Positions 13,934 to 61,493 of a stretch of DNA of 64,000 nucleotides are shown here, in pieces (within the stretch, counting starts at the first letter, position 1; each line of letters starts with the position of its first letter). Source of the DNA: Amphiscolops sp. MND2022 (lineage: Eukaryota); the NCBI GenBank assembly GCA_964187785.1, contig OZ076415.1, positions 46,934,001-46,998,000 on the forward strand, in the 5' to 3' direction. A program made the position numbers and the translations under genes. Under the pieces are notes generated by a model. The model ran no database searches and was not told the origin of the DNA. It saw only the letters and a list, made by a program, of their open reading frames with translations.

Positions 13934-14264
13934 ACTTATATCTCTACTTTTAAGATGAGTATTTATGCCTGGCGGCTGGATGCAGGAATGGAGAGCAGTC
14001 AAGTCTTCGGAACATGGATCACAATCCTCAGATTAGTTCTCTCTTTTCTTATTGAAAACACAACCATGCAATTCTCTAGTTATTGTCAGCACTGATGTTT
14101 TTGTATTAATAAGTGTTATTATAATTATTTGTTTAAAGATGCTGATCAAATAGTTAAAAGGTTAAAGTTCTGTCTTAGGTAAAATAGTTTTAAGGTCAAA
14201 TATTTAAGAGTTCTTTCAATCAGTTCTTTTGTCCTCAACAACGGAATGTTTCAGCTATGTTACA
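13934..14264 (-). repeat. 3' LTR of element A (331 bp)
   Basis: Direct repeat of 27867-28195; by manual count 3 substitutions and one 2-bp indel (about 99% identity). Minus-strand termini TGT...AGT. Confidence 0.95.
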
Positions 14265-14273
14265 CTTCCTCTC
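14265..14273 (-). promoter_or_regulatory. Polypurine tract of element A
   Basis: GAGAGGAAG directly before the 3' LTR on the minus strand. Confidence 0.8.
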
Positions 14274-14600
14274 ATCGAAAAACTTCCGGCGTCTGAAAAA
14301 GAGCCATCATACAGTCTGAGGAGTAGTGTAGTGATGATTAGAAGCTGAAATTGCCAAGTTGAGTAGTCTACTTCCAATAATTCCATTGAAAGAGCCCAAA
14401 GAGAAGAGTTTTGGAGAGCAGCACAAGTCCCAGTTTCATGTTGTGATAAAGTTGTATATTTCATCCAGTCCAGTTGAATATTGTAGAGCCAAAGATTACT
14501 ACATTTATAATTTACATATACTGCAGAAGAAAATATATGAAAGGATTTGTTTTGATCAATCTCAATGATGAATGAATGATTTAACCGAAGGTTCGTGAAG

Positions 14601-17008
14601 TCAAGCATTGGTGTCGGCTTGGTCTGCTTCAAAGTCTCCGGTATCGGGAACCTTTTGGTTAATTGTAACTTGACAGTTACTTGGGTGTTTTTTGATTGAT
14701 GATTGAAGATTTTTAATGGGATGGCATTGTTTGAATGCAGTCGTCTCGTATTCAAACCTTGAACTGGCCATTCTGGGGTCTAGTGGACTTTGCATGAGCA
14801 CTTGATCGCAATTAGCAGATGTAGATGGTTCGTTTAGATTTCTTTTCGATTGTGAACGTGAAAGATGATATATTCGTCCAAATTTTTTGTGAAATTTATC
14901 CTCAGCATGAGAATCAGTTGTTTCCAATTTCATCATGGGTTTAGCTCGCACTCTTTTTTTGTTTTTATCAAGTAGGGATGGCAACAATTTCGATGCCAGA
15001 TTGTAGCGATGATAAATGTACATGAAGATCAAGTGCAAAGCTGTCGATACAATGAACACAGTTAATGTCAGCATGAATGAAATTCGGAACGGAACATATT
15101 GATTAAATTCTTTCGTTAAGGCTGGTTTCAAGAGTTTCATTTCTGATGCATATGGTCTGGCAATGTCGATCATGTGTTTGACTTCACGATTCTTTGGTCC
15201 TTTTGCTAACTGTAGCTTTACCTCCCTCAAAAACTTCACTCCTGCTTCAGCTTTCGATGGGTAGAACGGTAATTCGTCCAAAGGGGGGACTTCCATAACC
15301 AATGAAGCGATAGGATTAGGCAGAGAAACTTGCAATTTTATTGGTGGAATGTGAGCGCAACTTGATAGATCAGATCGGATCTTGATGTTGTCAGTCATGA
15401 TTTGCATTCCACATGCTAAAGTGATGAGACATATGCGGCATCCGCGAAAAGAAGAGCCCTGAACAGAGGAAGATGAAACTTCACGAAGGGTAACTGCGTG
15501 AGCGGATTGAATTAACCAAATGCCATAGCCTAAGTTTGTGGCTTGTTCTATGGCAGGCAGTTGTACAATGGTAGTATCACATACTGCAAGAGCCTCCTAT
15601 GCTGTACTGGAATACAAGGTGGCTAAACAAGACGAGTGTCCCATCTCTGTTGGAACAGACTCTGAACAGATTCGGTAACGAGATGAGCCGAGACAATGCT
15701 CAAACTGTTCAGCAGAGAGGACAGATGACTCCATGTGATCCTCCGACAAAGCTAAATATGGAGCTTCGATGTTTCATGTAAGACCCGACTGGGGATCGTC
15801 TGGATACGGCATCGGAATTAATTTTGCTTCATAGACAGTAAAAACGGTTTGCTTAGATGCTAGCGGGATGTTCAGGGTCATCAAAAGACCTTCATTAACC
15901 GTAATAGCATCTGCTAAGAGCTTGGAATCGAAGTAAGATAGCAGATCTGACATTGGGATAGCTAAAATCAGCCTATCCTCAGCCGTCGCCTGCTTCATTG
16001 CAACACTTCGTAGAATAGCCAATAACGATTCCGTTGGTACCAAAGACATAGGTAAATGACCTCTAAGTATAACCGGAATTGAATTTAAGATGTTCATGCG
16101 GAATGCAAATAAGACCGCGCGATAGCTCTTAACACTTGCATGTATCATTGCTAGTAGCGAAGATAAGGTATCGAAATTGAAGTTTAGTTGTTGATTCGAA
16201 AAAAGCGTTTGGTTGCAGTCGCGGAGTACATGAAAATTATGCTCAAAAACATCAAACTGTTGTTGAATAAGTGCCCAGTTTTTGTTTTGCGTATCAACAA
16301 GTTCCCTTTGGATGTCGTGAAGGGCCGCCAATTCATTTTCTACCAAAAAAATTTTTTGTCCGTAGATGTTGTAAATTCAGTTACATACTGGGTTAAAATG
16401 TCCTGGAAGTCTGATAGTTTGCGTATGTTCTCGGCATTTGCCTTCGCAGCGTCTTGACAGGAATCAAAAATGCCTTGTAGTCCACAAGAGTCGGAACTAC
16501 CGAGAGCCACTCCTCCTCCAAAAAGGCCGACTGCAGCAAGAGCCGCTAGTCCCACTTGGGATCCACGTCGGTGGCGAGTATTCCGCTGCTGTTGAGGAGG
16601 GGAGAGAAACATTGCTGTTTCATTACGTAGGAGGGCAACATCGAGTTCCGCAGTGTGGATTTCAGTTTCTATTTGTTGTAACATCCAGGTGACATTGAAC
16701 GGCGTTGAATTTGTTGAAAAGTGACTTGAAAAGTCCAAGGGACAAAAAACAGATGGAAGTTCCCACATCGACGCAAATTTGGCCATTAAGGCCACAATAT
16801 CTGGTTTAAGTGCGAAGTCATAAGTCGGAAAGGGGACTAAAAATTCAGTTTTTATAAATTTCTCCGCGAGCAAGATTTTACTGCGTTCATGGAACAGAAC
16901 GCCCTTTTCTTGGATTTCGTTCGGGTTATTGGAGGCTTCTAAATTAGAAAGCCACTCACTTCGAACTGAAGCAGGGGTGAAGAAAACCAGGAGGAACAAA
17001 ACTAACAT
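14601..17008 (-). pseudogene. env: Env-like class I fusion glycoprotein (about 800 aa), disrupted by 1 frameshift and 2 nonsense codons
   Basis: Signal peptide MLVLFLLVFFTPASVRS; furin site NTRHRR; fusion-peptide-like GSQVGLAALAAVGLFGGGVALG; heptad-rich helix; Cys-rich ectodomain including EQATNLGYGIWLI; TM ISFMLTLTVFIVSTALHLIFMYIY. Pieces 16340-17089, 15774-16346 and 14601-15407 join via a T-run frameshift at approx. 16345, TGA at 15774 and TAG at approx. 15590. Confidence 0.85.
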
Positions 17009-17388
17009 CGATCCGTTTTTCTTCGTGTGTTTCCCCCTTTTTTTGATATTGGATAAAATCGAATAATTTTCGAATGAATACTGTAGCAACTAGTTCGATC
17101 GATCTCAAATGCAAGAATGGCACTTTAGGTATTTTTGGGCGGGGTTTGTGGATTTTTGAAAGATCACAAGAAATGTGATTCCATTTGTTTTCAATATCCG
17201 GTGCCCTTTTGATATTGACAAAATTCGAGTTGTGAAAGTTTGTTTTGGCAAGTCATGTTTACGGTACTAGTGATATTGGCGTTGTTTAGTTGCACGTAGG
17301 TAAGTAATGTGACATCCTGTATGTAAGTGGACATAGGACAGCAAAATGTCATCCAAGTCGAAAAGAGATTTTCGAGTATTTCAGCTAA

Positions 17389-17799
17389 ATGAAAGTCCTG
17401 TACTTGGTTTCGGCATTCTGCCTTTATGCCATTGTTGAAACATGTGTGCAAAGGGAGTGGCGAGGCCACAAAATACTGTGTTGTCCCAACGGGACTGCTA
17501 TGGAAGTCTCGCCTGGTCAGAATGTCTGGGTGACACAAAAGACAAGTGTATGTGGCGCATCGAGCATCGAAGAAAAACCTGACTCTAAATCGAAAAAAGT
17601 GATGAAATGGCTAATCGCCCTACTTGTATTAGGAATAGATGCGTGCTGTTGCTGGCGGAAATTTCCTATCCAAAGAATTACTGCAATGATAACAAAATGT
17701 TGTCCAACCAAAGCTGACGTGGTCGAAAACCCAAAACTGGAAGTAAAAGTCATCAAAACTGAAGCAGTTGCGAAACTTCCACGCAGCCAGTCGTTTTAA
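17389..17799 (+). CDS. Small putative membrane protein, antisense inside element A
   Basis: 136-aa ATG ORF with hydrophobic N-terminus MKVLYLVSAFCLYAIVETC, a second hydrophobic stretch WLIALLVLGI, then a CCC motif and basic residues. No recognisable family. Confidence 0.5.
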   Translation: MKVLYLVSAFCLYAIVETCVQREWRGHKILCCPNGTAMEVSPGQNVWVTQKTSVCGASSIEEKPDSKSKKVMKWLIALLVLGIDACCCWRKFPIQRITAMITKCCPTKADVVENPKLEVKVIKTEAVAKLPRSQSF

Positions 17800-18077
17800 G
17801 TGACAAAAAACTAGGTTTTTGTTTTACGTTATGTGTGAGAATAATTTAGTTAGTGTGATAACTGAACAATCTGAATTTGACAGCATACTTTTACGTTTAC
17901 AGCATACGTTTACAGCATACTTTGAAACTTGAAAGGATTTAATGCTACTTGTTTTGATAAAAAACTTGGCTTTTAAAAAGACCGGAGCCAAATCTGCTAG
18001 TTTACAAGAAAAAAAGTGCATATTATCAAGGTTAGAAGATTCAAGAGTTTAAATAAACAAAGAACAGAATGAATTGG

Positions 18078-18362
18078 TCATAAAGTTTGATAGGCATTAA
18101 ACAAAGCCATCCGCAGTTGTCGGAATTTGATGAAAGTCCCTAAGCCGCCGAATTTCGGGACAGGAAAATCCTGTCTTTGAAACAGAAGAACCAGCTCGAT
18201 CCATTGAGGAGAACCGTAGGCAAGCTGTCGTAAGGTGCCATCTGATAGGATCAGCGAAATGCCCATCGTTTCATCAGTTTGAATGCGTATAATTGGGAAA
18301 GCCGTGCCATCGTGGGTACACTCCCAATTGTAGTGAAAGGCAAAAGCCATGCTTTGTAACAT
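18078..18362 (-). CDS. Small ORF of unknown function between pol and env of element A
   Basis: 94-aa ATG ORF with globular-looking composition; no recognised motif. Confidence 0.3.
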   Translation of the reverse strand: MLQSMAFAFHYNWECTHDGTAFPIIRIQTDETMGISLILSDGTLRQLAYGSPQWIELVLLFQRQDFPVPKFGGLGTFIKFRQLRMALFNAYQTL

Positions 18363-18535
18363 TACGTGAAAAGATCGAGTGGAAAGTAGGTAAAATGATG
18401 TGCCGAAGCTTAGCTTAAATTCAAAAGTAAAGAATCGAAAGAAAGAGACAAACTAGACAAAACGCTGTACAAGAAGAACTTGTCGATGAATGATATTGAC
18501 TATATTGTTTTGTCGGTAAACAGGAGTTAAATGTC

Positions 18536-19793
18536 ATGACAAAGGAACTTGAGTCAAGTGTAACTAACGCAACATGTGTTTGTTTTAAATCTCGAGAATG
18601 CAGCGAAAAGATTCATTATGAATATTTGCTAGATAGAATGGAACGTACATTATACAATGCGATCTCTGAAATGAAAAGAAACAACGAAGTGAACAAATTA
18701 GTCCGCCAAACAAAGGGGCAAAAGGATTTATGGGGGAAACGGCTCAAGCGGTTCACTCTCAACGAAATGGGGGCTTCATGCTGGAACGGTCAAAGGGTGC
18801 CAACAGTCGAAGAGTTAACCACTATCTTATGGCCTTTTCATGAAACTGAGAAAAGGCACATACAAGACGAAGAATCATTGCGAAAAGTATTATCCGACAA
18901 AGGGTACGTTTTGCCAACATTCATTGGAGGTCTCGAACGGGCTGTAAAAACGTAAGTAAACGGATTAGAGAAAACAAAATTAGAAAAGACAATAACGAAG
19001 TAACCATTTTCATAGATTCCTGCACGATTGTCCAGAATGCTTCTGGACGCGAAAAGAAGGCTATCGTTGGCAGAGAGCAACAAGTGTGGCTCGAAGGGAG
19101 CGACAAAAGGCCTGTGAAAAAATAGGTCTAGTCTGGCAAAAACTGACGGACGAGCCAGAAAATGGAGCAGTAATTGGGCTAGGTGAGCCGCCGATGGCAA
19201 CTTGTAAATCGATTCTTGCCCAAGGTGGTGGAAAACGTTGGGCGTCAAGTGTATATTACTTGCTGACGGGAAAAAAAGTGGTAAGTGTATGATGGAAAAC
19301 CATCATGACGACTGCAACTGGAAACGGAAAGCAAGAGAGTGATGGTGTTTCAGATAAAAAAAAGGACAGCACTGCATTGAAGCGGATCCGGCATACAATC
19401 GGGAACCACATGAAAACCCCTGAATTTCAGAAGTCAAGTGTAGAATGCCTGGAGTACGCTCCAAATGAATTCGAACTCGATGCCGTGCTGCGGTCAAATG
19501 CCGACATCAGTGAGCCTTGGGTAAGACCAAATTATTCAACGAAAAGTTTAAACAGGAATTTCAGAAAAATGCACTGCTTTCAGATGTTAGGCACGGCCCA
19601 GGTATTAGGCTGGGACATGCTAGTCTTCTTAAGATACGCAAAAAGAAAGGGATGGATTCGCTATCCTGCAAAAGCGAGGAGTCCAGCACCAAGGGCCGCC
19701 TTTCTCTTCCATGTCATTCACTCAGAGAGAGAAAGGAAATTTCATTGTGAACCACTAGTTGAGTGGCCAATAGAAAGGTTAGTAGGGACGTAA
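18536..19793 (+). pseudogene. Fragmented antisense accessory ORF(s) of unknown function inside element A
   Basis: Consecutive plus-strand ORFs 18536-18955 (139 aa), 19086-19292 and 19305-19793 (162 aa) look like one broken reading frame; the frame reads on as VNGLEKTKLEKTITK after the TAA at 18953. Confidence 0.4.
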
Positions 19794-20385
19794 GTGATCA
19801 ATATAATTTAAAAAACATCGAAAATGATTGAAAAAGTATTTACAGCAACGACGTAACCTTTGATGGGAGTGGGGAGGCCGAAAAGTCGCCCTCTAAAAAG
19901 GCCCGAAAATACTGGGAGTAATCATTTCATCAAATGATCTCATTTCAAAATTCATAAAGAAATGTCCAACTCAGGAAATCTAAATCTTTGTCGATAAAAG
20001 TGGTTTTAAGCGAGTATAAGGCAAGCTTACCGCTGGCGGGCGGTTGTGAAACAAGTTTTATAGAGTTTTTTTTCTAAAAAAAACGTCGAATTGTGGAAAT
20101 TATTGTAGGGAGACATGGAATCTCGAAGTGCGCCGTACGACCAGAAATTTTTTTTTTGATTTGCAATGCGACCAATGGGTGTGCCAATCAAAAGAGCGAG
20201 GCAAAAAAGGGCAGGACGCCGAAAATCCAAGTCTGCTGCGAAAATTTAACACTGAAAAAACTTCGGTTGAAAAGGTCAATTTTCATGTTTGTTGCGTTTT
20301 TGGTAATACGTTTAACGGAAAGAAGAGTAAAGAGCGACGTCTCGTGAGTAAGAAGCGATTGCATGACCCCAAGAAAGAGCGATCA

Positions 20386-22002
20386 TTAACGTGGGGGCTG
20401 AATGATTGTAATAGTAACCGGCGACTGTGAAAAAATACGATATAAGATTGAGAAAACAGTTGGCCAATGTAATCAGTCAAGACCGCTTCCGAGTCGCGGG
20501 ATGCTAAGTGCCCGAATGTTATGGCGCTCTAAATGCTGACGAAGGGCCATCAAGCTCAACTGAAGCGTTTCGTATGTAGGTTTATGAAAAAATCGTTGTT
20601 TGGTCACTAAATTGTGGATATAACGTTGATTTTTTTTGTCAAAATAAGAGACCAATGAGCCTGAAGGTAAACTGTTTTTTGCATTGAATCCAAACTGACG
20701 GAGCTCTGGATAGCGGTATGCGATTGCGGAAGCAAGGCCGCGTTTCATTTGAAAATCGGCTGAAACACAGTGAGCTATAGACTCTGTAGAGTCTAGGATA
20801 TTCGAAGAAGAAAAGCAAAAGTTTGGATGATTGTCGGAAGAAATAGAATTTAAAACATTGGATGAGGACAGTCTTTTCTTCAAATTACGGAAATTGTAGC
20901 GTGCTTTTACTTCCGTTTGGTGCTGGAGATACGCCTGAGGAGATTGCGGTGTCAGCTGGTGCGTTGGAGATTGTTGTACCCGTGGGCTTTGACTAGAATG
21001 AGGCCGAGTGCGTTGACAAGATTCAAGTAAGATCGTGCGCTTATCTGCTTTTGGTAAGCTTGTGCCTGGGACCTGATTCAACTGTGTTCTATGTGGAGGT
21101 TGTCCGTAAGTTTTTGGTCCACGTCCAATAAAGACTGGTACTGTTTCACGATTCTCATCGAAATTCAAAGTGCGATTAGTGCGAGATGAGGTAGTCGGAA
21201 GTTTCGAACGGACGGTACGTGATGCTTGCTCGGCCGAAGTGGGTGTAAATGCACCTGCGTGGCGTGCCTGGTCATCATCTGAAGTCGCTGGTGGAGAGGA
21301 CGGAGAATCTGTGGATTCATCGTCAAGATATGGCACAAGCGCTGGTTGTTGTTCTTCGTCCTGGGCTGGCAGTGCGGGAATTGCTGGAGCTGCTGCTGCA
21401 GCTGGTAGGGGTGGAACTGCTGGCCCTGGAGCTGGTCCCATCGGGATAACAGCTGGTTCAATAGGAAAACTAAGCGAAACCGTAACCGGTGGAGGCTTTT
21501 CTTCGTTGTGAGCGACACTAGTTTCCTCTGAGGGAGGTAATAGAAGGTTTGGAATGCTTTCATCGAAAATAGCTGGTTCTCCACGGAATCGCCCAAGCAT
21601 AGGGTCGCGTTGAAATTTATCCGGGTCAATTTGCGGTAAGTCGTCAACTTGATATTGCGGTACAACCGGTCGGAGACGAATGCGATGTACGCATTGAGTG
21701 TAGTTTGTACCTACCTTGCGAATTATGTAATTTGAATTTGTTAAAACTTGCTCGACGCGATACAATGGTAGCCAGATAGGAAGGAACTTACTGGAAAAAT
21801 CAGACTGCGTCATTAGTTTTGGATTCAAAAGAAGACAAAACGAGAATTGTTTTAGAGGTTGCGCTTCAGCTTTGTAATCATAATATGCGCGGTATCTATT
21901 ATACATTTCAGTCAATTTACTTTTCGCTTCGGAAAATTTTTGTAGCATGGCATCCTGCAATGCAAGCACACACATATTCCGTAGTCGGTTGCGCACGTTC
22001 AA
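20386..22002 (-). pseudogene. Pol C-terminal extension: integrase tail, low-complexity linker and TARG1/OARD1-like macrodomain (approx. 20386-20820)
   Basis: SIAHCVSADFQMKRGLA...YIHNLVTKQRFFHKPTYETLQLSL...ALSIPRLGSGLD*LHWPTVFSILYRIFSQSPVTITII aligns by eye with human TARG1 (SLAHCISEDCRMGAGIA...[21 protein letters not shown]...LSMPRIGCGLDRLQWENV). Joined to pol by a frameshift in a (TG)n run at approx. 21970; premature TGA at 20473. Confidence 0.85.
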
Positions 22003-25000
22003 GCGAAGTGTTATTAAACCTGAGATCCAATGGTTTCAAAGGTTCACGACCGTGGAACAATGCGGTCGGGCTTGTCCCTATTGCAAAATGATAAGAAGTA
22101 TTATGAATAAATGCAGCAAGTTGCACGTATTTGTACAAGTCATTCCACTGCTCTGTGGTGTTCAACTTCAAAATTCGTTTGAGGGCGCTATGCGAGCGCT
22201 CCACACTACCTACCGTTTGAGGGTGTTTTAGACTGGCATGTTCCAATTTTATTTCCAAAAGTTTAGTCAATTCGTGCATCAATTCACTCACAAAAGTATT
22301 ACCCAAGTCGGATAAAATCGTTTTTGGAAGATAACTCTGACGGAAAAATATCGACGCAAGTTCTCGTGCAACAGTTTCGGATCTCCCATTAGGAAGTGGG
22401 ACTGCAAAAAGATATTTTGTAAAAACATCAATACCCGTAAGAACATAACGGTAGAGCGGAGACTGTAACGGACCGACAAGGTCAATTTGTAAAATTTCGC
22501 CCGGGTAAGATTTCAACGAGGAGACCGGTTGCAACGGAATTTTCAGATTTTTGCTTGGTACACGTTTCAGTTGCAAGCATTGTAGACAGTTTTGGATAGT
22601 TGACGTTAAGTATTCTGTAAAATTCGGAAAATAAAAGCATTTTCTAAATTCTTCAACCGTTTTATTGATTCCCATATGGCCTGCTGTCGGCGAGTTATGC
22701 AAGCGGTAAATTACTTCGCGCCAAAGGGATTTCGGAACGCAGTACTGTTTGTGTTGAACCTTTCCTTGGTCGTCAAAAAAAAGTCGGTAGAGGACATTTT
22801 CGTCGATTATGAGACGTGGAAATTGTTTCCGATACTTTCGTAAAGCGATCGGTAAATTTGGCGACATGTCCGGTGAACCTCGGTCTTTCCATTGCATTAC
22901 CTCACGAATGGTCTCGTCTTGATTTTGTACTAGAGCGAGGTCTATTGGCTCTGACCGGTTGGGCAAATCATCAAGAATGTCGCTGAATTCTTCTGACGAG
23001 ACTAAGTTTATTTGATTTATTTGACAGAAAGAGTAAAAGCCAGTGATGTCAAGAGACGGGGTAGTCTGCGCTTCGGTTGTTTTCTGTAAAAACTGTTCGT
23101 AGAGACCAAATTCTTTCAATTGTGAAATTAGGCGTTCGTCAGCCTGATCGTCAACAGATTCCGGAAAAGGTGATCTATCCGAAATATTTGATAAAGCGAC
23201 ATCAGGAGATTTCGCTTCGTTTGCTATTTCGATATCTTTAATAGGTATACGATCAGTTAATTTGAGAGACAGGGTTAGAGTAGGGTCTGTTTGCATTCGT
23301 GATAAAAAATCTGCGGCCGAATTCGCTATACCAGGAATATGAGCAAGGAGAATGTTGAAAGACAAAACTCTATCCAAACAGTTCCATAACGATGGATGAA
23401 TACTTTTAGATTGGAAAAATTGCGTGAGACTACGGTTATCGGTTAAGACTAGCACAGGTTTAGTTGCGCCCCATATAAAATGTGCAAAATGATCTAAGGC
23501 GAAATAGAGAGCAAGAAATTCTTTATAGTAAACCGAAAATTTCAATTGCGTGGGACCAAACAATCGAGATCCAAAGGAGACCGGCGCGTATACTTTTTTC
23601 TCTTTTCCTTGTTGATCTAACAAGTAGTCCTCAATCATGAGGACAAAGCCTGTGCCATGGTAACTAGCGTCACAAAGGAGTACGTATTGGAGACCAGGTT
23701 TTGCCAATCGCAAAGTAGAGTTGGTAGCATTTCGTAAATCAGTTTTTAATACATCTAGTGCTTCGCTATGTTCTTTCGTGGTTTTAAATTCTACATCTTT
23801 TCGCAAAAGTTTGTAAAATGGTAGCAATTTTTGACCCAAATTGGGCATAAATGAACGGAAAAATTGGACAAATCCAATCAATCTCTTCACTTGTTTAACT
23901 GTTTCTGGCATCCTGATTTTTTCAAGGAATTTGTTTATTTTGTCTGCTTCAGGTGAGATGCCTTTAGGAGTTATAGTGCTTCCCAAATATTCAATTTTGG
24001 TTGTCCCAAATTCGCATTTGTGAGCAGACAATTTTAATCCCGATGCTCGCAGGCAATCAAAAATTTTCGTTAAAGCAGGAATCATTTCATCAAAGTTGTT
24101 TACTCCCATGGCAATGTCGTCCATGAATTGAGTACAAACATTGGCAGCAAGACATTTCTCTAGATAATGTTTGACGAACGAACTAAATCCAGTGACGGAT
24201 TTGTTCAGGCCTTGGGCTAAACAATTATAGGCAAATGTACGTGAAGCGAAATTAAATGCCAGCAATTGTACCGAAAGGTCATCCGCCATTTGAACGCAAT
24301 GGTATGCTTGCGAACAATCAAGTTTACAAAATAGCTTCTTCCCCGCAAAATGGTTTGTCGCATCGGTCATATTTGAAATCGGGAAATTGCTATTTAAGTA
24401 ATCATGGCGTAGGAGGTGGTTGACTCTTCTGAGATCGATAAGTATGCGAAGCTTGCCAGATGGTTTGCGATGTACAAATATCGGACTAGAATATTTCGAA
24501 TGTGACAACGTAGTTATGATGTTAAAATATTGTAATAACGCCAATTCAACTAAGATTTCGTCACGCAAATGAATCGGTGCTGGTGGACCTTGAACGTATA
24601 CCGGAAGTTGATGAGCAGGCGTTAATTTGATCTTCAATTCTGTATTATACCCAACATCGAAGCGATGTTTTGCAAACACGTCATGATATTCAACAAGAAA
24701 GTCCTCCAATTTTGATTTTTCATCAGCGCTCAAAACACATGTATCCCACGTAAATTTTTGCAAAAATTCTCGTCTATCGTGTGAATTAGATTTTGGATTT
24801 ATTTTTTCAAAACGTTGAAGTTGCAAAATTTGGTCGTAAATTTCGCGTTGCAACGGTGACAAATTTGAAAGATCTGTACATGTTTCGGGAGTCGGAAACC
24901 AAAGTTTTGAGTAATTTGGGGGCGGTCGACCATTGTCAGTGTCAAATTTTTGAAAGTGTATATCTTGAATTAGCTGATTGAGTTCATTTTCAAAATCGTC

Positions 25001-25890
25001 AGGTTTTCTCATTTTTGCGAGTGCCAATAATTGTGGATCTATTCCGAGGAGATAATCAGCTTGTGACTCGCTCAAAGTTTCGAAATGTGCAATTTGTTTT
25101 TTGCTATTTAGCGTAATCTGGGAATCGGACAAATTGATCGCTGATATGTATATTTTATTGTCATTGTCCATCTTGCTCAGAGACGAAGTTAATGCAATAT
25201 TGGCTTTTTCCTCCAGATTCTTGTTTGGAATGACTAGTCCTGTGCAATTAGCGAACTGGTCAGTATATTTATCTAAATAGCATTCAAGGAGGACTTGTTG
25301 CTGCGGTCCAATATTGACTTTTTTGCCCAATAGGATAGGTATATTTTTCATTTTTTTCACAAATTGGCGTTTTTTTCCAGCGTCCGGTTTCATTTCATTG
25401 AGTTGAACCGTAAAGTCGGGCAGTTTCAGTAAATTGTTTTTGGGGTCTATCGTGATATTCTGTTTTTTAAAGAAAGAGTTTCCCAAAATTACACTATTCA
25501 TTTTTGATAGTACAAGGAAACTGTCTGTAAATGAATGAATTCCAATACAGAATGTGAGATTCACCTGATTATCAACTAACACTCGTTGTCCTGAAGCCAT
25601 ACGGACAGACGTAAAGTTTGGAGTTTCATTTTTAATTAAGTCGGGATGACTCAAACGTAATTCGTCGTATAAATTTTGAGGCATTGCATTAGCGCAGGCG
25701 CCTGTATCAATGAGGGCTCTCCGGTGAATGTTCGGAGAAAATTTCAATTTAACGTAGGAAAGATTTTCACCTTCAAGAGGCAAAACAGCGCATATATCTG
25801 GCTCTTTTAATTCTATGTTACATGTGTGTGGCTCATTAGACTGGTTTTCATGTAGAGAATTAGGCGGTGGAGTCTTGTGCTGCGTTTTTA
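21917..25890 (-). CDS. pol: Pol of element A (protease, RT, RNase H, integrase)
   Basis: PR ALIDTGA; RT LDCSQAYH, AQGL, QFMDD; RNase H LCDAS, YKEFLA, LTDN; IN H-H-C-C finger plus QIDLVGP, SDLG and VERSH. The frame is open back to the gag stop in the -1 frame. Confidence 0.95.
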
Positions 25891-27852: not shown

Positions 27853-27866
27853 CGCTCCTGTCACCA
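27853..27866 (-). promoter_or_regulatory. Primer-binding site of element A
   Basis: TGGTGACAGGAGCG abuts the 5' LTR and is complementary to a tRNA 3' end (...GTCACCA); the tRNA identity was not determined. Confidence 0.8.
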
Positions 27867-46735: not shown

Positions 46736-46816
46736 TTGTGTTGGTTGGTTGTCATTTGGTTTGGTAGGTGCCGTGGATGGCCCTACTTTTTGTGCGTATC
46801 CGCTTAGAAAGGGGTT

Positions 46817-47290: not shown

Positions 47291-50164
47291 TCTGGTTAGT
47301 TTTTGGCATGTGGATTCTGATTATGAACAAAAGGGGAATTTTTGAACAATGGTATTTTTGGTTTATTTGTCTTGCTCGTCCCCCCGAAAGAAAGGATGGA
47401 AAGTGATAACAGGTGCTCGTTGCAAATTTTCAAAATTAAAATTAACTGGATTACATGGGTGTGGTCGCGCTGTAGTTGGGGTGCGATCATAAGACCGCGG
47501 TTAACAAAAAGTTTGTACAAGCTTTGATAATTGGGCTAGTGTAATTCTATGTACTAATACTAACTAAAGTTTCGTTCCTTGTCTCCACTGAGTGGAGGGA
47601 AATGGATTTTTGATTTATCAAACAGAAAAAGTTTTTTTTTTGAAGACTCTTTACGTTCTACTTGCTAATCTACTTTGGAATAAGCTATGGAGGAGCCTAT
47701 TGAACTGTGGCTAGTGCTGTGGGCGGTAGATTGGGTTGAATGGTAATGGTCGAGACAGATGGTCTAAGCGCAGTGCGCTCTTTCGACTGGCTAAGCTTGT
47801 CACTCACCTAGTCTTTCCGACTTACGGATTCGGGTACGGTGGGATGGATGGGGATCGGAACGGGACTCGGTGATTAGTATGGAAGAAGGCGTTTAGTTTG
47901 GAAGGTAACTTTGATTGAGGCTGTTGCGTTGATGGTGCTACAGTTTCACTTTTTTAGCAAATTCGGTAATAAAGTGCGCAATTTCTTTGGTCAACTGGGC
48001 ATCTTTTTGGAGGCTCTTAGTTTTGGGAGGACTGCTATGGCGGTGAATGCGACTCTGTTGGGAGCGTAGGGGGTGCTCTTTATGTTTAAGAGTTATGTTC
48101 AAGTCCTTATATGGGTCGTTTGGGACTGAAAGAGTGCCGTGCTCTGGTCAATTTTCGCAAAACCAGCGGATTTGTTGTCAATCGGCACGTCTGGGAAGGG
48201 TGAAAATCACTTCCCGGGCTCGTAGCGATTCGAAAATTTCACACCGTATACTACACTAGCTGAATCGTGGGAAACTGAATGCCGATTGTACCAAAAGTTA
48301 CGCTGTGGGTGTTGCGGCCACTTAATATTGTTCTTTGAAAAATTGACTATGTCGTGTAATTTGCAAAAAGTGGTCAAACTCGCCTTGTAGGCGTCCTGGC
48401 TACCTGAAATTTTGCGTGCGAGCGTAACTTGTGCCCACGTAATGGAAAAATACGGCGATCGATACTTGGCTATTCGAGGTGACAAAACCTTGATGTACGT
48501 GAGGTATTACTTTTTCCGGCCAAAATTCACAAAAATGTCGATTTCTCAGCTTTGGCTAGCCACTGGCTGCTCAAATTGCATAAATCGTCGGAATTTAGTG
48601 CAGTCCGTAAGAAAATGCAAGAATTTTAGTGCTGGGATACCTGCAAGGTATTGCACTATGCTCAACTAAAATTCAAATCTTTCGACATTTTCACACTATT
48701 TTTGAGCAAAACTTCTGCTAAGATTTCTCAATCACTAGTAATGCTAGCGCTACGAAACTTACACCACTAACGTAACTTTTTATGGTCTACTAGATGGCGC
48801 AGTCCGTTTGAGGCTGCTTCTACTAGGAGAGATTTCGACCTGTGCTGGAAGCACTTCTACATGGTTCCCAAAATGTCGCAAAAATAACGCGTTTTCGACT
48901 ATTTCTCAACAACCACTGGTTGGAATCACTCGCGGTTTTCTGCGTTTGTAACGTTACACTCTGTAATAACAGAAAATGGGCAAGCGAAACCTGGTAGGTT
49001 CCAAATAAGGTCTCTCAAAAAACTTTCAAATTGCACTTTCTACACTCTCGGAATAACACTGGAATAACGTGTTTTCGCTAAGAAATTTCTATCTGTCGGT
49101 TCTTGGACGTTCGGGATTGTTCCAATAGTACTGTACGGAAATATGACAACTAATTTTTTTGGGGGGGGCTGGGGTTCGTTCAATTATTATTTTTGATGTT
49201 ATATCTCTCAGGTCTATGGGGTCCTCTACTCAGGTCTGTGTATATCAAGAGAAACAAGTTGTTAAAGTTTCAATTTCTATTGGGGAGCCTTAAAAAGCTA
49301 CTTGGCAAAAGTGTTTTGTACTACCAAGCTAGGGGAAAAGGTTTTTGGGCTGATTCAGAAGCTTGGAAGCTAATGTCCAATGCTTTGCTCTTGTCAAATT
49401 GGGTCAAAATGGCCAAATTTGACGATTTTTTTAACAAAAATCGCTGAATTTTTCACTGTTTTTGGACAATTGGCCCCACAAAAGTTTTTGTTCCTGACCC
49501 AGAGGGTCTGTTGGAACGTTTTTCTAGTATTCCCACTGGCCTCACTCTATTTGACAAAACATTGGCTTTCAAAATTGAAAATTATGGAGTTTGAGCTATA
49601 AATAACGTTATTTTCGAGGTTTTCGAGCTCAAATTTTTTAATAACTGATCAGAATACCCTTTGGGTATTTTTCTCAGTTAGTTATAATGGGAATAGGCCT
49701 GGGAATACTCTTTTTGGGCCGTTAAATTAAGAAAATGGACGATTTCACCCGTTTGACGTGGAGTACTGCAATCACAGGGGCATGGGAGGAGTAGTCGTGT
49801 AGGACGTCGTCACGTCGGCACAGCTGGTGGAATCCTTTAGCATTCGTCCTCTCTGTCCCCATACATTGCAAATTAGCTGAAATCAAGCTAGAAAACCCTT
49901 TAAAACACGTTCCGGATAGGCCGGAACAGCTTTTTTTTAGGTTTTAGTAAGGTAAAAGAGGGTACACTGTCAGAAACCGTTAATTTCTCTTAGTAGACCC
50001 CAGAAACATGCGGAAAACGCAGGAATAACATTAGTACAAAGCCCAAAGGGCCAGAAAAAGGTAATAAAAAGAATCTAGGGTTCTCCCATAGGTTTTCCTA
50101 GATCTGGTCCCTTCGGGGCCGGAAAGCAGAAGTTGCTCCTACTTGTACGCAAAATGAAAAATAT

Positions 50165-50180
50165 CCCTCTGTGGTCGCCA
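50165..50180 (-). promoter_or_regulatory. Probable primer-binding site of element B
   Basis: TGGCGACCACAGAGGG, complementary to a tRNA ending ...GTGGTCGCCA (Arg-like); 16 nt from the LTR. Confidence 0.6.
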
Positions 50181-50196
50181 TAAAAACTATTCCAGA

Positions 50197-50917
50197 TGTA
50201 ACGACCGGCTAGCGACGCACATCTAGGAATAGGGACAATGCCTGGGATGCTTGAACAGGAGACCGTTGTCTTACTACATACCTAGACACTAGTTTTTGGT
50301 CCCAAAATGGTCTCCTAGGGGGACTTTTCTGACGTCTAAGGAGGCTTCTCAAATTAGAGCTCCGAAGCGACGCGCCGGCACTCTCAAAGTCCGGTCACGT
50401 CCCACAAGCCTGTAAAAACGTTTCCTAAGGTTTCTAGTGCGTTCCTACAAGTTCCTACATGCTTCCGAGGTCAAAAACGGTGATCAGCTGGAAAACATAG
50501 TATTTGGCAAATAAGATATAAAAAGACCTAGAAGGTCAAACATCTTCCAAGTACCAAAGGAGAAATATGGAAATAATAAAGGAAAAACGGGGATAAGCCC
50601 CAGTTACTTTACAGTTTTCAGTCCATCATCCATATTTTGCCTCTGGCAAGGCTCTGCAGATGTTGTTGATTTCCCAAGAATATGGTACAACATTCCGATA
50701 ATCTTTCTGCTGATGTTTTTTCATCTTCTGGCAATTCTTCATCTTTTTCTGCAACTTTTTCACACGTGCTCTGTTTCTTGCTCGCTCTCCGCGTGTTTTC
50801 TTTTTTCTTTCATGCTTTTTGTACCTGCTAGGTCGGCCATCTTTTTTCTTCTGTTTTAACATCGCACTTTTCGAATTTTTCATCGAAACTTTGGTCATGC
50901 CGGTGGCAGACGTTACA
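50197..50917 (-). repeat. 5' LTR of element B (721 bp)
   Basis: Direct repeat of 32148-32867. Confidence 0.95.
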
Positions 50918-54369: not shown

Positions 54370-54788
54370 TGTTGAATTGTAAGTTTGGGAGAGCGTTTTA
54401 TAAAAAGACTGAATTGAAATTTATTAACATTACGTTTTTGCTTGAGACAAACTGCAGTTGATTTGAATGAAAAACACAATGGAGCAAAAAAAGTGGGAAA
54501 GATTACAAGCGTGAAAACATTTTGACTAGCATGACTAGCACGTTAGCACAGAATTCAACAAGTGACAATCTCATTATGAATACAGAAATTATTCATGTTT
54601 AGAAGTCTCAACATAGCGGGGTCTCTTGAATTCTCGTGACTTTTCTGATCGTGATGGCAATGTATCCGAGATACAACGTTGTGATTTTGAAGGAGGAGTA
54701 GTCGAGGAAGAAGAGTGGGCGTGCTCCCAGGAAGCCGCCAGCAGACGGTCCAGTCCGGAAGTCAGCGAGGACGGGGGCATCAGAGCAA

Positions 54789-55677
54789 ATGGGCCTGGAG
54801 GAGTTCTGGGAAGAAGTGGTCTGTGGTCGTCTTGGACTGCCTCCTCTCCCTGTCAAGACATCTGCTTTGGTGTCGGAGGATAGATGCAACGCAGCTCTGC
54901 TCGAAGGACAGCTGGTCACTCTTTCACCAAGTGATTTGGTAGGTTAGTTGAATATTGAGTTATTTGATCTTCTCCTGTCAATTCTGTTAATTTCAACATG
55001 TAGCTGCAATGCGTTTGATTCATCTCTGATTATGTTAGTTTGTTGACAGGCCGAACTGCAAACCCTTCGTGACCTCGAAGTCACGGGAAGCGAGGGGTCC
55101 AGATTCACAGTGGGGCGAGGAGGATCGAACTGTCCCGAGTACCCGTCGAAAACGAAGCAGGACGTGAGAATGAGATCTGGAACAGCAGGGACAACGTGGG
55201 CCGGCTAGGTAGTGCATCCAGTCCACATCATTCGAGTCGAGCAGTCATCGTTCAGGGCTGCTCACTAGGATTTATTTGACAACAAGAATTCTTTCCTGTG
55301 CATGACAAAAGGGAGAAAGCTTTGGTTAATTGCCCCCCACGCAATCTTGGGGTCAGATGGAAAAATTTTGTGGCGACAATGACTCACAACGAGGGTTTTC
55401 CGACGCAGTGAGGTTTTTAAGGAACTTGGGTTCTCGCCAGAAGAAGCTGGTTTTCTATACCGTGCTGGACGAATCCAAGCCACTGTATCTGCCCTATGGC
55501 TGGGCCCACTCTGTCATTACACTGTGCAAGAGGGATGAAGGAGGAAGCTTCGTGGGCTCTATGTGGTACCTGGAGCTTCCAACTGACGAGGATAAAGTGG
55601 CGGCTTTCAAGAGGAAAGCACTGTATAGTGCAAGGGCTGGCGAAAGGACAAGCGGTGCGCTGGCAGCGCCGAAGTAG
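54789..55677 (+). pseudogene. JmjC-domain (2OG/Fe(II) oxygenase) gene, antisense inside the BEL element; probable intron 54939-55049
   Basis: AAH*DLFDNKNSFLCMTKGRKLWLIAP, then after a 1-nt C-run frameshift FYTVLDESKPLYLPYGWAHSVIT. This gives the HxD...H triad, the GxKxW strand and the LYxPxGWxHxV signature. An AT-rich GT...AG segment separates GC-richer coding blocks and joins them in phase 0. AATAAA at approx. 55827. Confidence 0.75.
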
Positions 55678-56339
55678 TCTCTCCAAAGAAGTAACCAAAA
55701 CTTCATAAGATTATAATTTAGAAAATCCGTGCAAAGCAGAACATAAAAGGCTGACGAATACTTCGAGTAAATTCATCATTTAGAGGATGGTAAGTGTGAA
55801 TTCGAGGGCAATCAGGCGTAACAATAGAATAAACAACGCACAGTTTTGGCCAATCAAAGGGATATACAAGTAACATACCTGAATTAATGCAAAATGTAAA
55901 TTTTGAGCAAAGTACTAAGTGGACTGGATTAACAGAACAAGTGTTGGCAATATCAAATTTATGCAGCCTCCAATGGTAAAAGAAGATACCAATATTTGCC
56001 CCATGCTAAGCAGGTCCAGTAGGAACCATAAAGACACCAAAAATGCCAATAGGGTCACAGGACAGGAAGTTCGAATTTTGCATGCCAGAAATTAAAAATC
56101 AGAAACTCAGCCCGCCTTTTTTCGAATAATAACTCGAAGAGGATTGTCAAGAGACAATCCAAAGCGGTTGTACATGATGCACCAGACATCTGGCATTGCA
56201 ACGATAAGAAAATTCTGGTTTCAATGTAAAAAGGGTCACTAAGCAGGAATTTCATGTATGCCGAACTTGATGTAAAATTCATAAAACTTGGAATGTGAGA
56301 GCCATAACTTGATGCCAACAATGATTGGATTCAACTGGA

Positions 56340-59300
56340 AAGCTGAAAAGGAGTGTGGCAGTCTAGCGGCAGCTTACGAAGCTTCACTACTGGTCGCACA
56401 AAAGTCGAATGTGGGGTCTTCACCTTGCAAACCCTGACAACGTCGTCATTGCTTGGATACTCATCAATGACTCTTCCAGTTTTCCATTGCAGGGGGCCTC
56501 ATTGTTGTCTACAAGCAGCACCAAATCGCCTATCCGCATCTTTGGACCGTCATCGGACCATTTGTTTCCAAATTGAAGGATCGTGAGATAACCTCTCCTC
56601 CAAGACTTCCAAAAATCACTTTGAAGCTTTTGGGTCAATTTGTATCTGAACATGATGCTGAGCTTTTCAATGTCTTCTTGAGGCAATGAGAGCATGGTAT
56701 CACCTATCAAGAAGTGGGCTGGTGTGAGGGCTGTAGGATCTGTCGGATCACTTGACAATGGAACTAGTGGTTTTGAATTTAGAATGGCTTCAATCCTGTT
56801 GATGACTGTGAGCAATTCTTTAATAACTGAGTCTTGCAAACCAATGACTCTTCTCATGTGCCTTTTCATGCTTTTGATTGCTGCCTCCCAGATTCCGCCA
56901 AAATGCGGAACATGGGGGTATTGTCAACCATTCGCATCCCTTCTGCATTGCGTAATTGGCAATTGAATGATTTGTGTCAGTCTTATCTAACAAAGCTTTT
57001 ATCTTGATCAAGTCGTTTCTGGCTCCTAGGAAATTGTTGCCACTGTCACTGTATATCTTCCCAGGTAATCCACGTCTTGCAACGAACCTTTGTCGACCCA
57101 GAATGCAGTCATCTTTAGTTAGACTTGACACTAATTCCATATGCACTGCCTTGGTACTCATGCATACGAACATTGAAATGTAGACTTTTTCCGTTTGTTA
57201 GTTGATGCCGAAAGGTCCTGCAAAATCAATTCCACAGCTTGCGAAAGGTCGAGGGCAAAACTCGTTCGTATTGAAGCGAAAACATGTGATACATTTTTTG
57301 ATGAAAGTGTTCACTACTGGTCTCGCATTGGTGATCCAAAACTCCTGTCTAATCGAGTTCAAGATTAGTAGTTCAAGGTTAGTAGCGTAGCTTCATGGAA
57401 TTTTCGGATGATAAGAGGAACTAATTTGGAATGCTTTGAGATCAGAGTTGGGAATTTTTTGTCTTCATGATAATTTGTCAATGCAAGGCTGCCTCCAACT
57501 CGTATGACATCGAATTCTTCATCAATGAATGGACTCAGATTGCGAAGTTTGGTGTTCTTGCCAATTACTTGATTATTTTTCAATTCAATATATTCAGATC
57601 CGAAATGTTTTTTTTCTGTTCTATGCGAAGTAGTAGAAACTTGGTCAATCGTTGATTCTTCGGATGTAAGTAATGTACACTTTTGATGTATCAGCAGAAA
57701 GGACGATAGAATAAACCGCATGATGATGGAGTACAAGTCATCTTGCACGACTGGGCCAACCATCATGGCATCATTTATGGACATTGTATTTGTCGTCTTG
57801 GCTGATCCAACAAAAACCACTCTCAATTTTCTGGTGGTAGAATCTTCCTTGAACATACAAAGCTTTGACCCGTGGGAGTTATCTCCTGTGCTGCAGGCAC
57901 TTCTTCTATGTGGTCCATGTTTTTGAACTTCTCTATGAATTCACTGTATTTTTTGTTAAGATCAGGCTTCTGACTGAGACGCCTTTGCAAGTAATCGAAT
58001 CGACGTTTAGCTTAATCAAAACTATCTCCTAGAACTACCTCGTCCTTGAAGAGTAGTCTTACAACGAAGCGATTTTGTTCAACCTTGAAATTTTGTTGGA
58101 AATGTTGTTCACACATTTCTTCTTCCTTGCTCCAGTGTTTGATTTTAGGAACTTCTTCTATTTCCCAAAACTTTTTCAGTCGTTCATCCAACGTGATGTG
58201 ACTAACATGAAATACATTGGAATGATTTATTGACCTCATGGGGACCTTGCCGCAAAGAACCCAGCCAAAACCGTTTTTCTGGCGAAGAGTTCATTCGAAA
58301 TTGTTCTTTTGTGATTATCCGTCATTTGTTCGATGATGTGTGCTCCTATGGTCAATTCCACTTCACCAGAATAAGCGAAGGTTGGATCAGCCAGTGGAAG
58401 ATCTTTGAGTTGCTTGTTATCCAAGCCTGTTATTCTTTGCGAAGGGAGCAGCTTAGTTACCTTTTCCAGAACAACAGCTGTTGTTTGAATGGGTCTTTGA
58501 TGAGATGATACAATTTCGAGATGGACGATACTTGCAGATCGGGTCAAAAAACCGGCCTCCAATTCCAGAGATCTCAACGTCTGCTTGCTTGGTCTTGAGT
58601 CCTAGGCACTTACGACATTTCTCTGATATACAGGTGAGTTGCGAACCACTATTCAGTATGGCACGGAAAGATAGAAACTTGTTAGAATCCGTTTTGATTT
58701 CTATTATTGCAGTTGGCAAAAGAGTGGAAGTAAACGAACTTCCTGCCTGAAGACCTTGAGTATTTTGAGACTTTGAAAGTAGGCTAGACGTGCCTTGTGG
58801 TCTATGCAACAGCGTGTGGTGTTGTTTTGGCAGGTGCGGCAAGTGGAGTTGGACTTACACTCACGCGATGAATGACCTACACGAAAACAATTGAAACACA
58901 ATTTTTTTCTTTGCAAATTTCGGATCTTTTCCCAATGTCTGGACCTTAAACGTAGAACAACAGAAAATCGGATGTTGCTCCGAGCACTGTGGACAAGTTT
59001 CTGGCTTGTGAGAACCGCTTGAGTACACTTGAGATGACTGCTTGGGTTGTTTGGCTACGTGGCCTTTGTTTGAAGTAGTTCGATCTTGACGATCTGACTG
59101 TACAGATTCCAAGGCCTGAGCGCGAGTAGTTATAAAAGCCCGAAGCTGACCCACGGTTTGAAGCGCTGTACCTGGATGCTCTAGCTCCCATTGTCTTCTG
59201 GACTCTTTGTCCAGTTTCTCGGCCAGAATTTTGACGAGAAGAAAATCACTCTTCCTCACATCTGCGTGGAATGCGCCAATTGCCATCAAATTTTCGTCAA

Positions 59301-59992
59301 AAGAGCTCAACAACTTGCGTAGATCTGCAGCAGACTCTTTTTCGATTGCTTTAAGCTTCAGGATGACGTCGACATGCGAATTGATGATCACTCTCGAAAG
59401 CGATCTCTCAATGATTTCAAAGCAACTGGATAGTTTGAGTTTGATAGTGGTCAATGAGCTACCAGTTTCAATGGTTCTCCTATGAAAGACAATTTCAGAT
59501 AGTTGAATTTCTGAATGTCGGGTAGTGTTGTATTACGATCCACTGATGCACAAAACTGTTCATGGAACGGTTACCACTCCTTGTGATTTCCATTGATATT
59601 GGGCAGATTAAATTTTGGCCTTTTGATTGTTGAAGTTATTGTAGAGGGTGTACTAACTGCTGGCGCAGCAAGAGCAACAGCTAATGCAGCATCAGGCTCA
59701 TCAAACGGAGAAAGGATTCGCTCAACTGCCTTCAAATGACATTGAATCCGCTCCTCAAATTCCTCAGCTAAGTTGATTTCCATTTCTTTATTGTCATTAG
59801 AGCATTTTTCGCGACCTTGAGAAACTGTGCGTCGTCAAGTCTTCTCTCTAGACGCTCTTGGAGAGCCCCCAAATAATCCACATCGGATTTTGATACGTCT
59901 GCTTTGTCTTTAGAGTCGATTGCTTCAACTCTTGCTCCATTTTTGTGATTGTTCCACTGATTGCTGAACGGGATCGTCGTAGAAATTCCCAT
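56340..59992 (-). pseudogene. BEL/Pao gag-pol remnants (gag with 3 Cys/His motifs, protease, truncated RT, integrase)
   Basis: Pao gag LVKILAEKLDKESRRQWE; CPQC/CFNC/CRTC motifs; protease RAILNSGSQ; RT LRVVFVGSAK...GPVVQDDL; IN VHMELVSSL, YSDSG, EAILNSKPL, LTPAHFLIG. Most of RT and RNase H is missing near 57700. Confidence 0.88.
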
Positions 59993-61493
59993 GACTTGCC
60001 TGCATGTGGATTAGATGCCATATTCTATTCTTCCCGGAGAGCGCTGGCACCAATAAGTGTTGAATTGTAAGTTTGGGAGAGCGTTTTATAAAAAAAGACT
60101 GAATTGAAGTTTATTAACATTACGTTTTTGCTTGAGATAAACTGTAGTTGATTTGAATGAAAAACACAATGAGGCAAAAAAGGTGGGAAAAATTACAAGC
60201 GTGAAAACATATTGACTAGCATGACTAACACGTTAGCACAGAATTCAACAGGTTACAAGCTTATTATGAATACAGAAATTCTTCATGTTTAGAAGTCTCA
60301 ACACGAATTGTATTTCGTTTTACTAAGGAGGAGGCGAGGTTTGAAAACAAGCGCTCCCATTTGTCTCATCACGCTATATCCGAACATTGAGACGTTATAC
60401 CCCCTTCAAAAAGCCCAAACGATGCCTCTTTTACAATTTTAAAAAGTTTTTTGAGCCTTAGATATAGCTCCGACATTTGACGTTCCCGTCTCGTTTTTTT
60501 TTGCAATTTCTGACATGCCAGTTGCTCATCAACAGTCTCTTCTCCTTTCAGAATCCAGACAATTCCATTTTCAAAGTTTTCACTAAGTCCTGAATAACAT
60601 TAAACCATCTTGTGAATCCCAATAGAATGAGTTAGACAGGTGTTTTTTTCGCAATTTCAGCAGCAATCTTTTTTGAGGCCTCAGTCACCAATCAGCGCGT
60701 CAACTTTTTAAATTAATTTATCCCGTTGATTCTTTTTTTTTCACTGCCAAAGAAAGCCGATGCGAATGACAACCCATGAGAGTATTTCACACAAACGGAC
60801 CATTGTCTTGTTAGATTCACAATTGTCAGCAAAAATCGCTACATTATCTGCAAAGTTTTTTTCCTATATCAGATATCATGGATCTTCGTCATCAATCAAG
60901 CGCCATGTGTATCATCATGTTGGGGGAAAAGACACACACCCGTGGTCTGCAACGAAAGTAGGGAACCCCATACCAGCCACTATCCCAGTAACAAAAAAAC
61001 AACAAACTACTCTTACTCTGCAAACTACTCTGCAAAACTGTTTTTGAAGTTGTCAAATCGACTTCAGTGAAATCGTAATGTTCTGCACTTTGTGAGGTTT
61101 CAACAAGAAGTGGTGAAAAAGCAAGTAGGGCTGTCTTATAGTCTCTGCTCGGGTGAGGATTACAGGCAACCACTACCGAGTAAGGGTTGCTTCCAGAGGT
61201 CCAGTCGCCAAACACAACAGAAAGACATTGCAGGAACTACCGGGATCTTTTCTTTTCAACTTTTGGAGCAGTCAAGTGAAAGTACGTTCCGAACGTGGTT
61301 CGTGAATTAATCTCTAGTTTGGTATATTTTCTCGTAAAATCACCGTCGAAAAACGAAAGCGGTTTCAAGTTCATTCAAACCCACTCAAGCCAACCATATA
61401 TCTTCTTGGATCTAAATATGTCTTCTTTTTCTCCCACCACTTCACTCCCAAATATCATTTTTTGCAAGCTTAAAGTATTACAAACATTCAAAC

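Follow-up and report, generated by a model that had tools for sequence, protein, structure and literature searches.

Lineage-restricted Gypsy and BEL retrotransposon cargo genes with predicted tag-removing products in Amphiscolops

We analysed a stretch of 64,000 nucleotides from Amphiscolops sp. MND2022 (the window; assembly GCA_964187785.1, contig OZ076415.1, positions 46,934,001 to 46,998,000), which holds three long terminal repeat (LTR) retrotransposons, all on the minus strand, and followed their genes through the 1.07 Gb of the genome searched. Certain Gypsy and BEL lineages keep, under selection, cargo genes whose predicted products strip tags from other molecules: a TARG1-type macrodomain carried on Pol, and an OTU-like protease or a JmjC oxygenase, exchangeable in one antisense position (the slot). 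The tags predicted to be removed are ADP-ribose, ubiquitin and methyl- or hydroxyl-type groups. With a probability of roughly 0.55, the cargo likely undoes host defence or silencing, and our best reading is that of a lineage-specific, exchangeable counter-defence toolkit. We infer this function; the facts it builds on, namely domain identities, fixation within lineages, purifying selection, conserved introns and the occurrence of both slot genes in both superfamilies, are established below. The elements and their main cargo genes are as follows.

13934..28195, minus strand: element A, Ty3/Gypsy, with LTRs (13934-14264, 27867-28195), gag, pol, macrodomain, antisense slot and env
20385..20810, minus strand: TARG1/OARD1-type macrodomain at the end of A Pol, with equivalents of Lys84 and Asp125
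18600..19793, plus strand: spliced antisense gene of A, encoding an H2C2-like motif and a predicted OTU-like protease, 4 or more exons, 3 introns
near 18950-19015, 19280-19355 and 19520-19585, plus strand: the short GT-AG introns of that gene
32148..50917, minus strand: element B, a Ty3/Gypsy LTR retrotransposon (LTRs 32148-32867, 50197-50917)
54370..60303, minus strand: decayed BEL/Pao LTR retrotransposon (LTRs 54370-54613, 60058-60303)
54654..55677, plus strand: predicted antisense JmjC gene of the BEL element, two exons, intron at about 54941-55050

Macrodomain, OTU-like and JmjC cargo of Gypsy and BEL elements

The three elements, proposed in a first-pass annotation of the window, are borne out by their LTR pairs, by target site duplications in A and BEL, and by their pol domains. 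LTR identity is 99.1% in A and 93.9% in BEL, each with a duplication of 5 bp, and 96.9% over 720 nt in B, an element that extends beyond the first repeat call. Pol is of the Gypsy type in A and B, and the domains DUF1759 and DUF5641 identify the third element as BEL/Pao. All cargo genes of the window are broken, and open copies were found elsewhere in the genome; a Pfam scan of the window open reading frames (ORFs) detected no macro, JmjC or OTU domain, and the domain calls needed PDB searches or open copies.

The macrodomain claimed for element A was confirmed. The C-terminal domain of A Pol matched human TARG1/OARD1 with an E value of 1.6e-17, the next match being DarG (E 0.012). Its Lys and Asp pair with positions 83 and 124 of the TARG1 chain, which are Lys84 and Asp125 provided that the chain begins at residue 2; Asp125 presumably takes part in catalysis. 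Lys84 is catalytic (PMC8501950). We predict that the domain is an ADP-ribose hydrolase of the TARG1 type. The window copy carries a premature stop just past the Asp, by which the final helix and strand are cut off. A genome search returned 1046 first-look candidates (such counts, here and below, are not copy numbers); 150 were scored, and 15 elements were fetched from the 150. Both Lys and Asp were retained in 27 of the best 30 macrodomain loci, the remaining 3 being unreadable. Three positions within Pol were observed: downstream of integrase in the A lineage, between RNase H and integrase (L097/98, L283/84, L285/86), and between protease and reverse transcriptase (RT; L099/100, L287/88, L289/90). 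RT identity among the four macrodomain-bearing lineage types is 25-39%. Support between lineages is low in the macrodomain tree, which is compatible with independent capture and with shuffling alike. The ratio of nonsynonymous to synonymous substitutions (dN/dS) is 0.14-0.27 in the macrodomain, about 0.5 in the preceding linker and 0.00-0.03 in RT. In one element pair (L081 and L083), dS reaches 0.75 in the macrodomain against 0.31 in RT, hinting at recombination of the 3' part.

The antisense ORFs reported for element A are real, but they are not separate genes: those at 18500-19793 are exons of a single spliced gene, and one further ORF is small and of membrane type (see below). Inspection of 7 copies showed splice-type dinucleotides at homologous sites; the introns differ in length, and most lengths are not divisible by three. 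From 35 loci examined, exon filters kept 14 and dropped 21, in which the strict motif was absent or out of frame; in all 14, both tested junctions show GT-AG and the frame is open. Compared by HHalign with five Pfam-OTU loci of the same genome, the spliced product gave a probability of 94.7% and a score of 52, the maximum among 20 shuffled decoys being 17. With looser motifs, the Cys and the His were each found in 28 of the 30 top loci, and in a distant lineage the Cys motif was found at 6 of 9 loci. Two pairs had measurable dS, and their dN/dS is 0.09-0.12. In the window copy, the frame is shifted and the predicted catalytic Cys is absent. From these motifs and profiles, the product is predicted to be an OTU-like cysteine protease and a deubiquitinase. 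The reading of its first exon as an integrase zinc finger was set aside, as the match was not significant; it stays a lead at motif level.

The JmjC gene reported in the BEL element is likewise upheld, through open copies. The window copy has several stops, one within the HxD motif, and a frameshift; elsewhere the gene is open over about 200 aa, with an AG acceptor and a further exon upstream. The gene lies antisense and 3' of the BEL integrase in 19 of 20 loci fetched. Cupin_8 scored above the cut-off in two copies (L062 and L105), and an AlphaFold model (pLDDT 70) matched FIH, KDM7A, PHF8, UTX and NO66 at similar E values of about 1e-6. The HxD/E...H iron triad and the 2-oxoglutarate Lys are found in JmjC copies and are not intact in the window copy; HxD...H falls within one open frame at 17 of 25 loci. 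dN/dS is 0.14-0.30. Sequence and fold thus point to a JmjC oxygenase. The profile favours PHF8/KDM7 (E 1.6e-6) and a single copy favours FIH. That the enzyme is aimed at methyl marks, as first proposed, was not borne out, since the structural comparison does not separate FIH, KDM7, PHF8 and UTX. Among 1.8 billion representatives searched, 64 proteins reached E <=1e-10, all short, and a metagenome scan with one copy found no relative. In a 52-row tree, the element-borne and short JmjCs stand apart (96/83) from 13 longer rows of cellular type, which were chosen by us; the BEL rows are spread over more than one group. No PHD or CXXC reader domain came up when the open JmjC frames were scanned with Pfam. 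In the window (54700-54740) and in relatives, the first exon has a conserved basic stretch, Ser/Thr-Gly-Arg-x-Pro-Arg, loosely resembling part of the histone H3 tail; it is possibly an H3 mimic, or a mere localisation signal.

Both slot enzymes occur in both superfamilies. In two Gypsy elements (L096 and L291) a JmjC gene occupies the slot that holds the OTU-like gene in A, and in L291 the Pfam JmjC match is above cut-off. Pol identity between two Gypsy siblings (L091/92 and L093/94) is 93.8%, and env identity is 84%. The two hold different slot genes, whose sequences cannot be aligned. Conversely, a BEL family (L126-L129, L132), making up 5 of the 12 Pfam-OTU loci fetched, has an antisense ORF with a zinc finger plus OTU directly downstream of integrase. 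Since Gypsy elements with JmjC and BEL elements with OTU both exist, OTU and JmjC each occur in the antisense slot of Gypsy and of BEL. The zinc finger of the BEL OTU gene matched integrase H2C2 at 70.9%. Cargo of another kind, an ORF encoding a DnaJ domain (L098:3565-4590; E 2.8e-7), lies downstream in an env-bearing Gypsy family whose macrodomain is placed between RNase H and integrase. The range of cargo is thus wider than first listed, as it includes OTU-like and J-domain genes. Over all cargo pairs with measurable dS, dN/dS is 0.03-0.30.

Element B and the remaining features of the window

Element B and the other features are listed next, followed by what was found for each.

37720..38180, minus strand: degenerate TARG1-like macrodomain at the C-terminus of B Pol, broken in the window copy
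38350..38720, minus strand: conserved upstream alpha/beta domain of B, downstream of integrase, macrodomain identity unconfirmed
33418..37510, minus strand: ORF3 of B, split into three pieces (open copies: about 1400 aa), its middle domain SGNH-like (lead)
25888..27201, minus strand: gag of A, with a CCHC knuckle
21917..25939, minus strand: pol of A (protease, weak dUTPase-like stretch, RT, RNase H, integrase), which goes on in another frame
14601..17089, minus strand: env of A in three pieces, with a furin-like site and a fusion-peptide-like stretch seen by eye
17389..17799, plus strand: small antisense ORF; by eye, its start is signal-like, one part is rich in Cys and a single segment is hydrophobic

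Two macro-like domains had been seen in element B. The C-terminal one holds: it matched the macrodomain profile (HHalign 95.9%), and TARG1 was the best match of its fold (Z 7.8, rmsd 3.9, 124 residues aligned, from a low-confidence model). The upstream one does not, its HHalign probability of 0.5% lying below decoys; its model has pLDDT mostly below 50, with STAS-like structural matches (Z 6.7), and its dN/dS is 0.11. In the C-terminal domain the Gly-rich and Gly-x-Asp loops are replaced family-wide. As the catalytic Lys is missing too (see below), this macrodomain is likely a non-catalytic binder or scaffold, and the view of the B domains as enzymes is not sustained. The ORF3 of B is real (dN/dS 0.03-0.14). 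An Atlas feature score of 0.87 suggests SGNH for its middle part, at the level of a lead, and searches of Pfam and PDB gave no support for that fold; the catalytic Ser motif is present and the His is apparently replaced (by eye, against known SGNH motifs). PPR matches to ORF3 were rejected as repeat artefacts, no single stretch being significant. Searches with element B gave 3284 and 2890 first-look candidates.

In A Pol, aa 207-284, between protease and RT, show a weak dUTPase-like match (E 0.004) under the cut-off. The env claimed for A is an open ORF of 750-880 aa in its relatives; the window pieces of env and one open copy had no match in Pfam or PDB. A env aligns to the env of another element, which in turn matches Baculo_F (E 3.6e-5); the support for the env of A is thus transitive, and by it A env may be of the F type. 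The small membrane-type ORF beside env is present in all A-clade lineages inspected, irrespective of the slot enzyme, and one might guess that it acts in superinfection exclusion.

Outside the elements, positions 4736-11454 hold fragments of a host CYFIP/Sra-1 gene, and a direct repeat of 235 nt occupies 1511-1745 and 11424-11658; the ORF at 8200-11454 was rejected as cargo, being one of these fragments. hAT-like transposase fragments lie at 31490-32173, 50918-51942 and 52158-53630, and the insertion of element B interrupts one of them.

Frequency of the cargo and the case for counter-defence

In the mechanism that we propose, the macrodomain, as part of Pol, would be produced and packaged together with it and would accompany RT, integrase, RNA and cDNA; there it would strip the mono-ADP-ribose placed on these by ZAP-like or ZNFX1-fused PARPs. 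The antisense orientation of the slot gene would keep its introns out of the splicing of the copied strand, so that they would survive copying, and implies a separate transcript in the cell holding the provirus; its product would work in trans, with ubiquitinated element proteins, sensors or chromatin as targets. Family B would likely have converted its macrodomain and SGNH domain into non-catalytic binding modules. The strategy would be limited to a minority of lineages, rather than common to every LTR element of the genome.

On the host side, Pfam gave at least 32 PARP matches, and 30 loci were read, among which 6 appear to encode ZNFX1-type helicase-PARPs, 7 ZAP/PARP12-like proteins and 3 ubiquitin-PARP fusions. 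In the ORFs scanned, Pfam confirmed these architectures in 4 of 4 helicase-PARPs, 3 of 3 CCCH/WWE-PARPs and the 1 ubiquitin-PARP. Four loci (L205-L208, on C4, C13 and C8) are long single-ORF fusions of a ZNFX1-type helicase and PARP, some locally clustered, and three of the four have two PARP stretches. ZAP and ZNFX1 have an antiviral reputation. ZAP is placed under viral defence in PMC4695847. As to the expected growth of host families, PARPs of antiviral-type architecture are many, and an expansion of host KDM genes was not shown, most of the 62 genomic Pfam JmjC matches falling in two repeated families of non-LTR elements. At both loci inspected (L364, L365), the high-copy KDM2/7-like JmjC genes belong to BRCT-bearing, non-LTR transposon-like elements. 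We infer a link between the cargo and a host restriction system. The more specific proposal, that a pool shared across superfamilies (de-ADP-ribosylation, deubiquitination and a retroelement-specific JmjC) counters ZAP-like and ZNFX1-fused PARP immunity, is offered tentatively, as a possibility we would not rely on.

The cargo had been taken to be a general and frequent property of LTR families. As a Pfam integrase census was swamped by one family, blind sampling was used instead, on four 100-kb stretches at round coordinates (400 kb in total), a small sample in which some places are fragments and for which the census profiles can miss distant cargo. Long antisense transposase-like ORFs were seen by eye in 3 of 10 Gypsy places. 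A JmjC gene was found at 9 of the best 30 DUF5641 loci, these 9 falling into 3 of 8 clusters. A minority of elements carry eraser-type enzymes, while accessory genes of some kind are common. The frequency claim was thus not upheld, and one window overstates cargo frequency. The counter-hypothesis of cargo both rare and unconstrained fits in one half: the cargo sits in a minority of elements, but it is constrained (dN/dS 0.03-0.30) and fixed within lineages.

Several results weigh against a counter-defence role. In the blind sample, the macrodomain was found in 1 of 10 Gypsy places, and there in the degenerate type, OTU or JmjC in none of the 10, and JmjC in none of 4 BEL places; 5 of the 8 BEL clusters are without JmjC. 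One examined copy of a very abundant young family has none of the macrodomain, OTU and JmjC, and six C-terminal ORFs scanned in the distant OTU-bearing sister lineage have no macrodomain; because of these two cases, the cargo is dispensable for element success. Family B, the largest of those with cargo, seems to have lost catalysis, with Arg in place of the catalytic Lys in all 24 readable of 25 copies. No dN/dS above 1, the sign of an arms race, was seen among the cargo pairs. Some domain assignments are softer than others. Without the BEL-borne reference, the OTU comparison falls to 32% (E 4.7e-4, score 30 against 20 for decoys), and single exons of the OTU gene had no match in Pfam; the JmjC assignment of L092 comes from motifs; and the JmjC class, judged from sequence and model, may be demethylase or hydroxylase. 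The PARP count comes from this genome alone, which gives no basis to speak of an expansion.

Other readings account for part of the same data. The selected cargo could serve replication itself, by clearing PARP1/2-type ADP-ribose at integration breaks, by maturing or stabilising element proteins, or by modifying the element's own RNA and proteins. Fusion to Pol fits work at cDNA ends and integration sites, selection is purifying rather than positive, the tied matches of the JmjC include small hydroxylases such as FIH, and a repair-related function has been proposed for transposon OTU domains (PMC2836005). A core function, however, would be expected in all families, yet most are without cargo, and unrelated enzymes substitute for one another in a single slot; we regard a replication or repair role, the chief rival, as conceivable, short of probable. 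Alternatively, the cargo could be a composite of separate acquisitions from the gene pool of DNA transposons (presumed donors being Ginger-like zinc finger plus OTU genes, transposon-borne KDM-like JmjC genes and disarmed transposases), so that the common label of eraser would reflect the content of that pool and the chance make-up of the window. The slot does hold non-enzymatic genes too, namely the transposase-like ORFs of the blind sample (3 of 10, by eye) and the J-domain ORF; the BEL OTU gene opens with an integrase-type zinc finger, as Ginger1 transposases do; KDM2/7-like JmjC genes ride on non-LTR elements of this genome; and rotifer LTR and Penelope-like elements draw on a common ORF pool (PMC5408684). 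Such an origin leaves the long, selected retention of catalytic residues in many lineages unexplained, and as a statement of origin it is compatible with counter-defence; as a rival account we find it improbable.

Passive carriage of captured DNA, or spurious domain calls, would suit the broken genes of the window and the failure of one of the two macro calls in B. It is largely refuted by dN/dS of 0.03-0.30, and intron positions conserved across divergent copies, as well as independent sequence and fold support for the domains, speak against it also, leaving it a very slim chance. Counter-defence remains our preferred reading.

Relation to known systems and meaning for the host

The A domain resembles human TARG1/OARD1 (PDB 2L8R, 4J5Q-S) and bacterial DarG, with the catalytic Lys aligned to that of TARG1. 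The difference is that the element macrodomain, its activity predicted, is embedded in retrotransposon Pol, at three positions. The C-terminal domain of B has the TARG1 fold in common, without the catalytic residues. TARG1 strips ADP-ribose from protein, DNA and RNA (PMC11088682, PMC8501950). The same fusion was found in two named outside proteins, a Garra rufa polyprotein (after integrase) and a Neodiprion virginianus Gypsy-type protein (after RNase H). Basta et al. 2009 reportedly described macro-domain ORFs of fish epsilon-like endogenous retroviruses. Such ORFs are present in epsilon-like endogenous retroviruses of ray-finned fish (PMC4977317), likewise a macrodomain on an LTR retroelement; here, by contrast, one genome has several Gypsy lineages with a domain of the TARG1 class, and an antisense enzyme slot comes alongside.

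OTU domains and introns are known in Ginger1 transposases, and OTU in animal Helitrons (PMC2836005). The A gene, in a mobile element like these, has an H2C2-like motif, a predicted OTU and introns, but no DDE core separates motif and OTU, and an LTR retrotransposon carries the gene as an antisense passenger; by analogy, the finger-plus-OTU layout may derive from Ginger1 transposases minus the DDE core. With PHF8/KDM7 and FIH-type JmjC proteins, the element JmjCs share the double-stranded beta-helix fold, the HxD...H triad and the Lys of a G-x-K motif, whereas each stands alone, at about 290-340 aa and with neither PHD nor CXXC found, and they separate in the tree (96/83). Rotifer Vesta LTR retrotransposons have a GDSL/SGNH ORF3 that keeps its invariant residues (PMC5408684) and lies downstream of pol, as in B; that of B is about 1400 aa long and seemingly without the catalytic His. 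In plant LTR retrotransposons, whole families have antisense ORFs in the stretch from pol to the 3' LTR (PMC7264820), and DNA methyltransferases have been captured by retrotransposons (PMC5890265). The slot resembles these in antisense placement and in capture of chromatin enzymes, but its genes are spliced, encode recognisable enzymes and are common to Gypsy and BEL.

Fusions of chromatin reader domains to transposons have been described (10.1101/2021.11.30.470311), in a paper whose main text does not contain the term JmjC, and a term search of a zebrafish survey (PMC8672886) returned no passage on macro, OTU or JmjC-type cargo. Within a literature search that covered few subscription papers and excluded Repbase, we found no JmjC or OTU genes in LTR retrotransposons, no TARG1-class cargo, no stand-alone JmjC family in LTR elements and no exchange of slot genes between Gypsy and BEL.

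The usual view of LTR retrotransposons is of gag-pol(-env) elements that small RNAs and chromatin hold in check. The macrodomain, OTU and JmjC are each small enough for assay. If our reading is true, ADP-ribosylation and ubiquitin would act as anti-transposon defences in an invertebrate. If the tentative proposal on PARP immunity is true, transposons and an invertebrate host would be engaged in an arms race through accessory genes, as complex viruses are.

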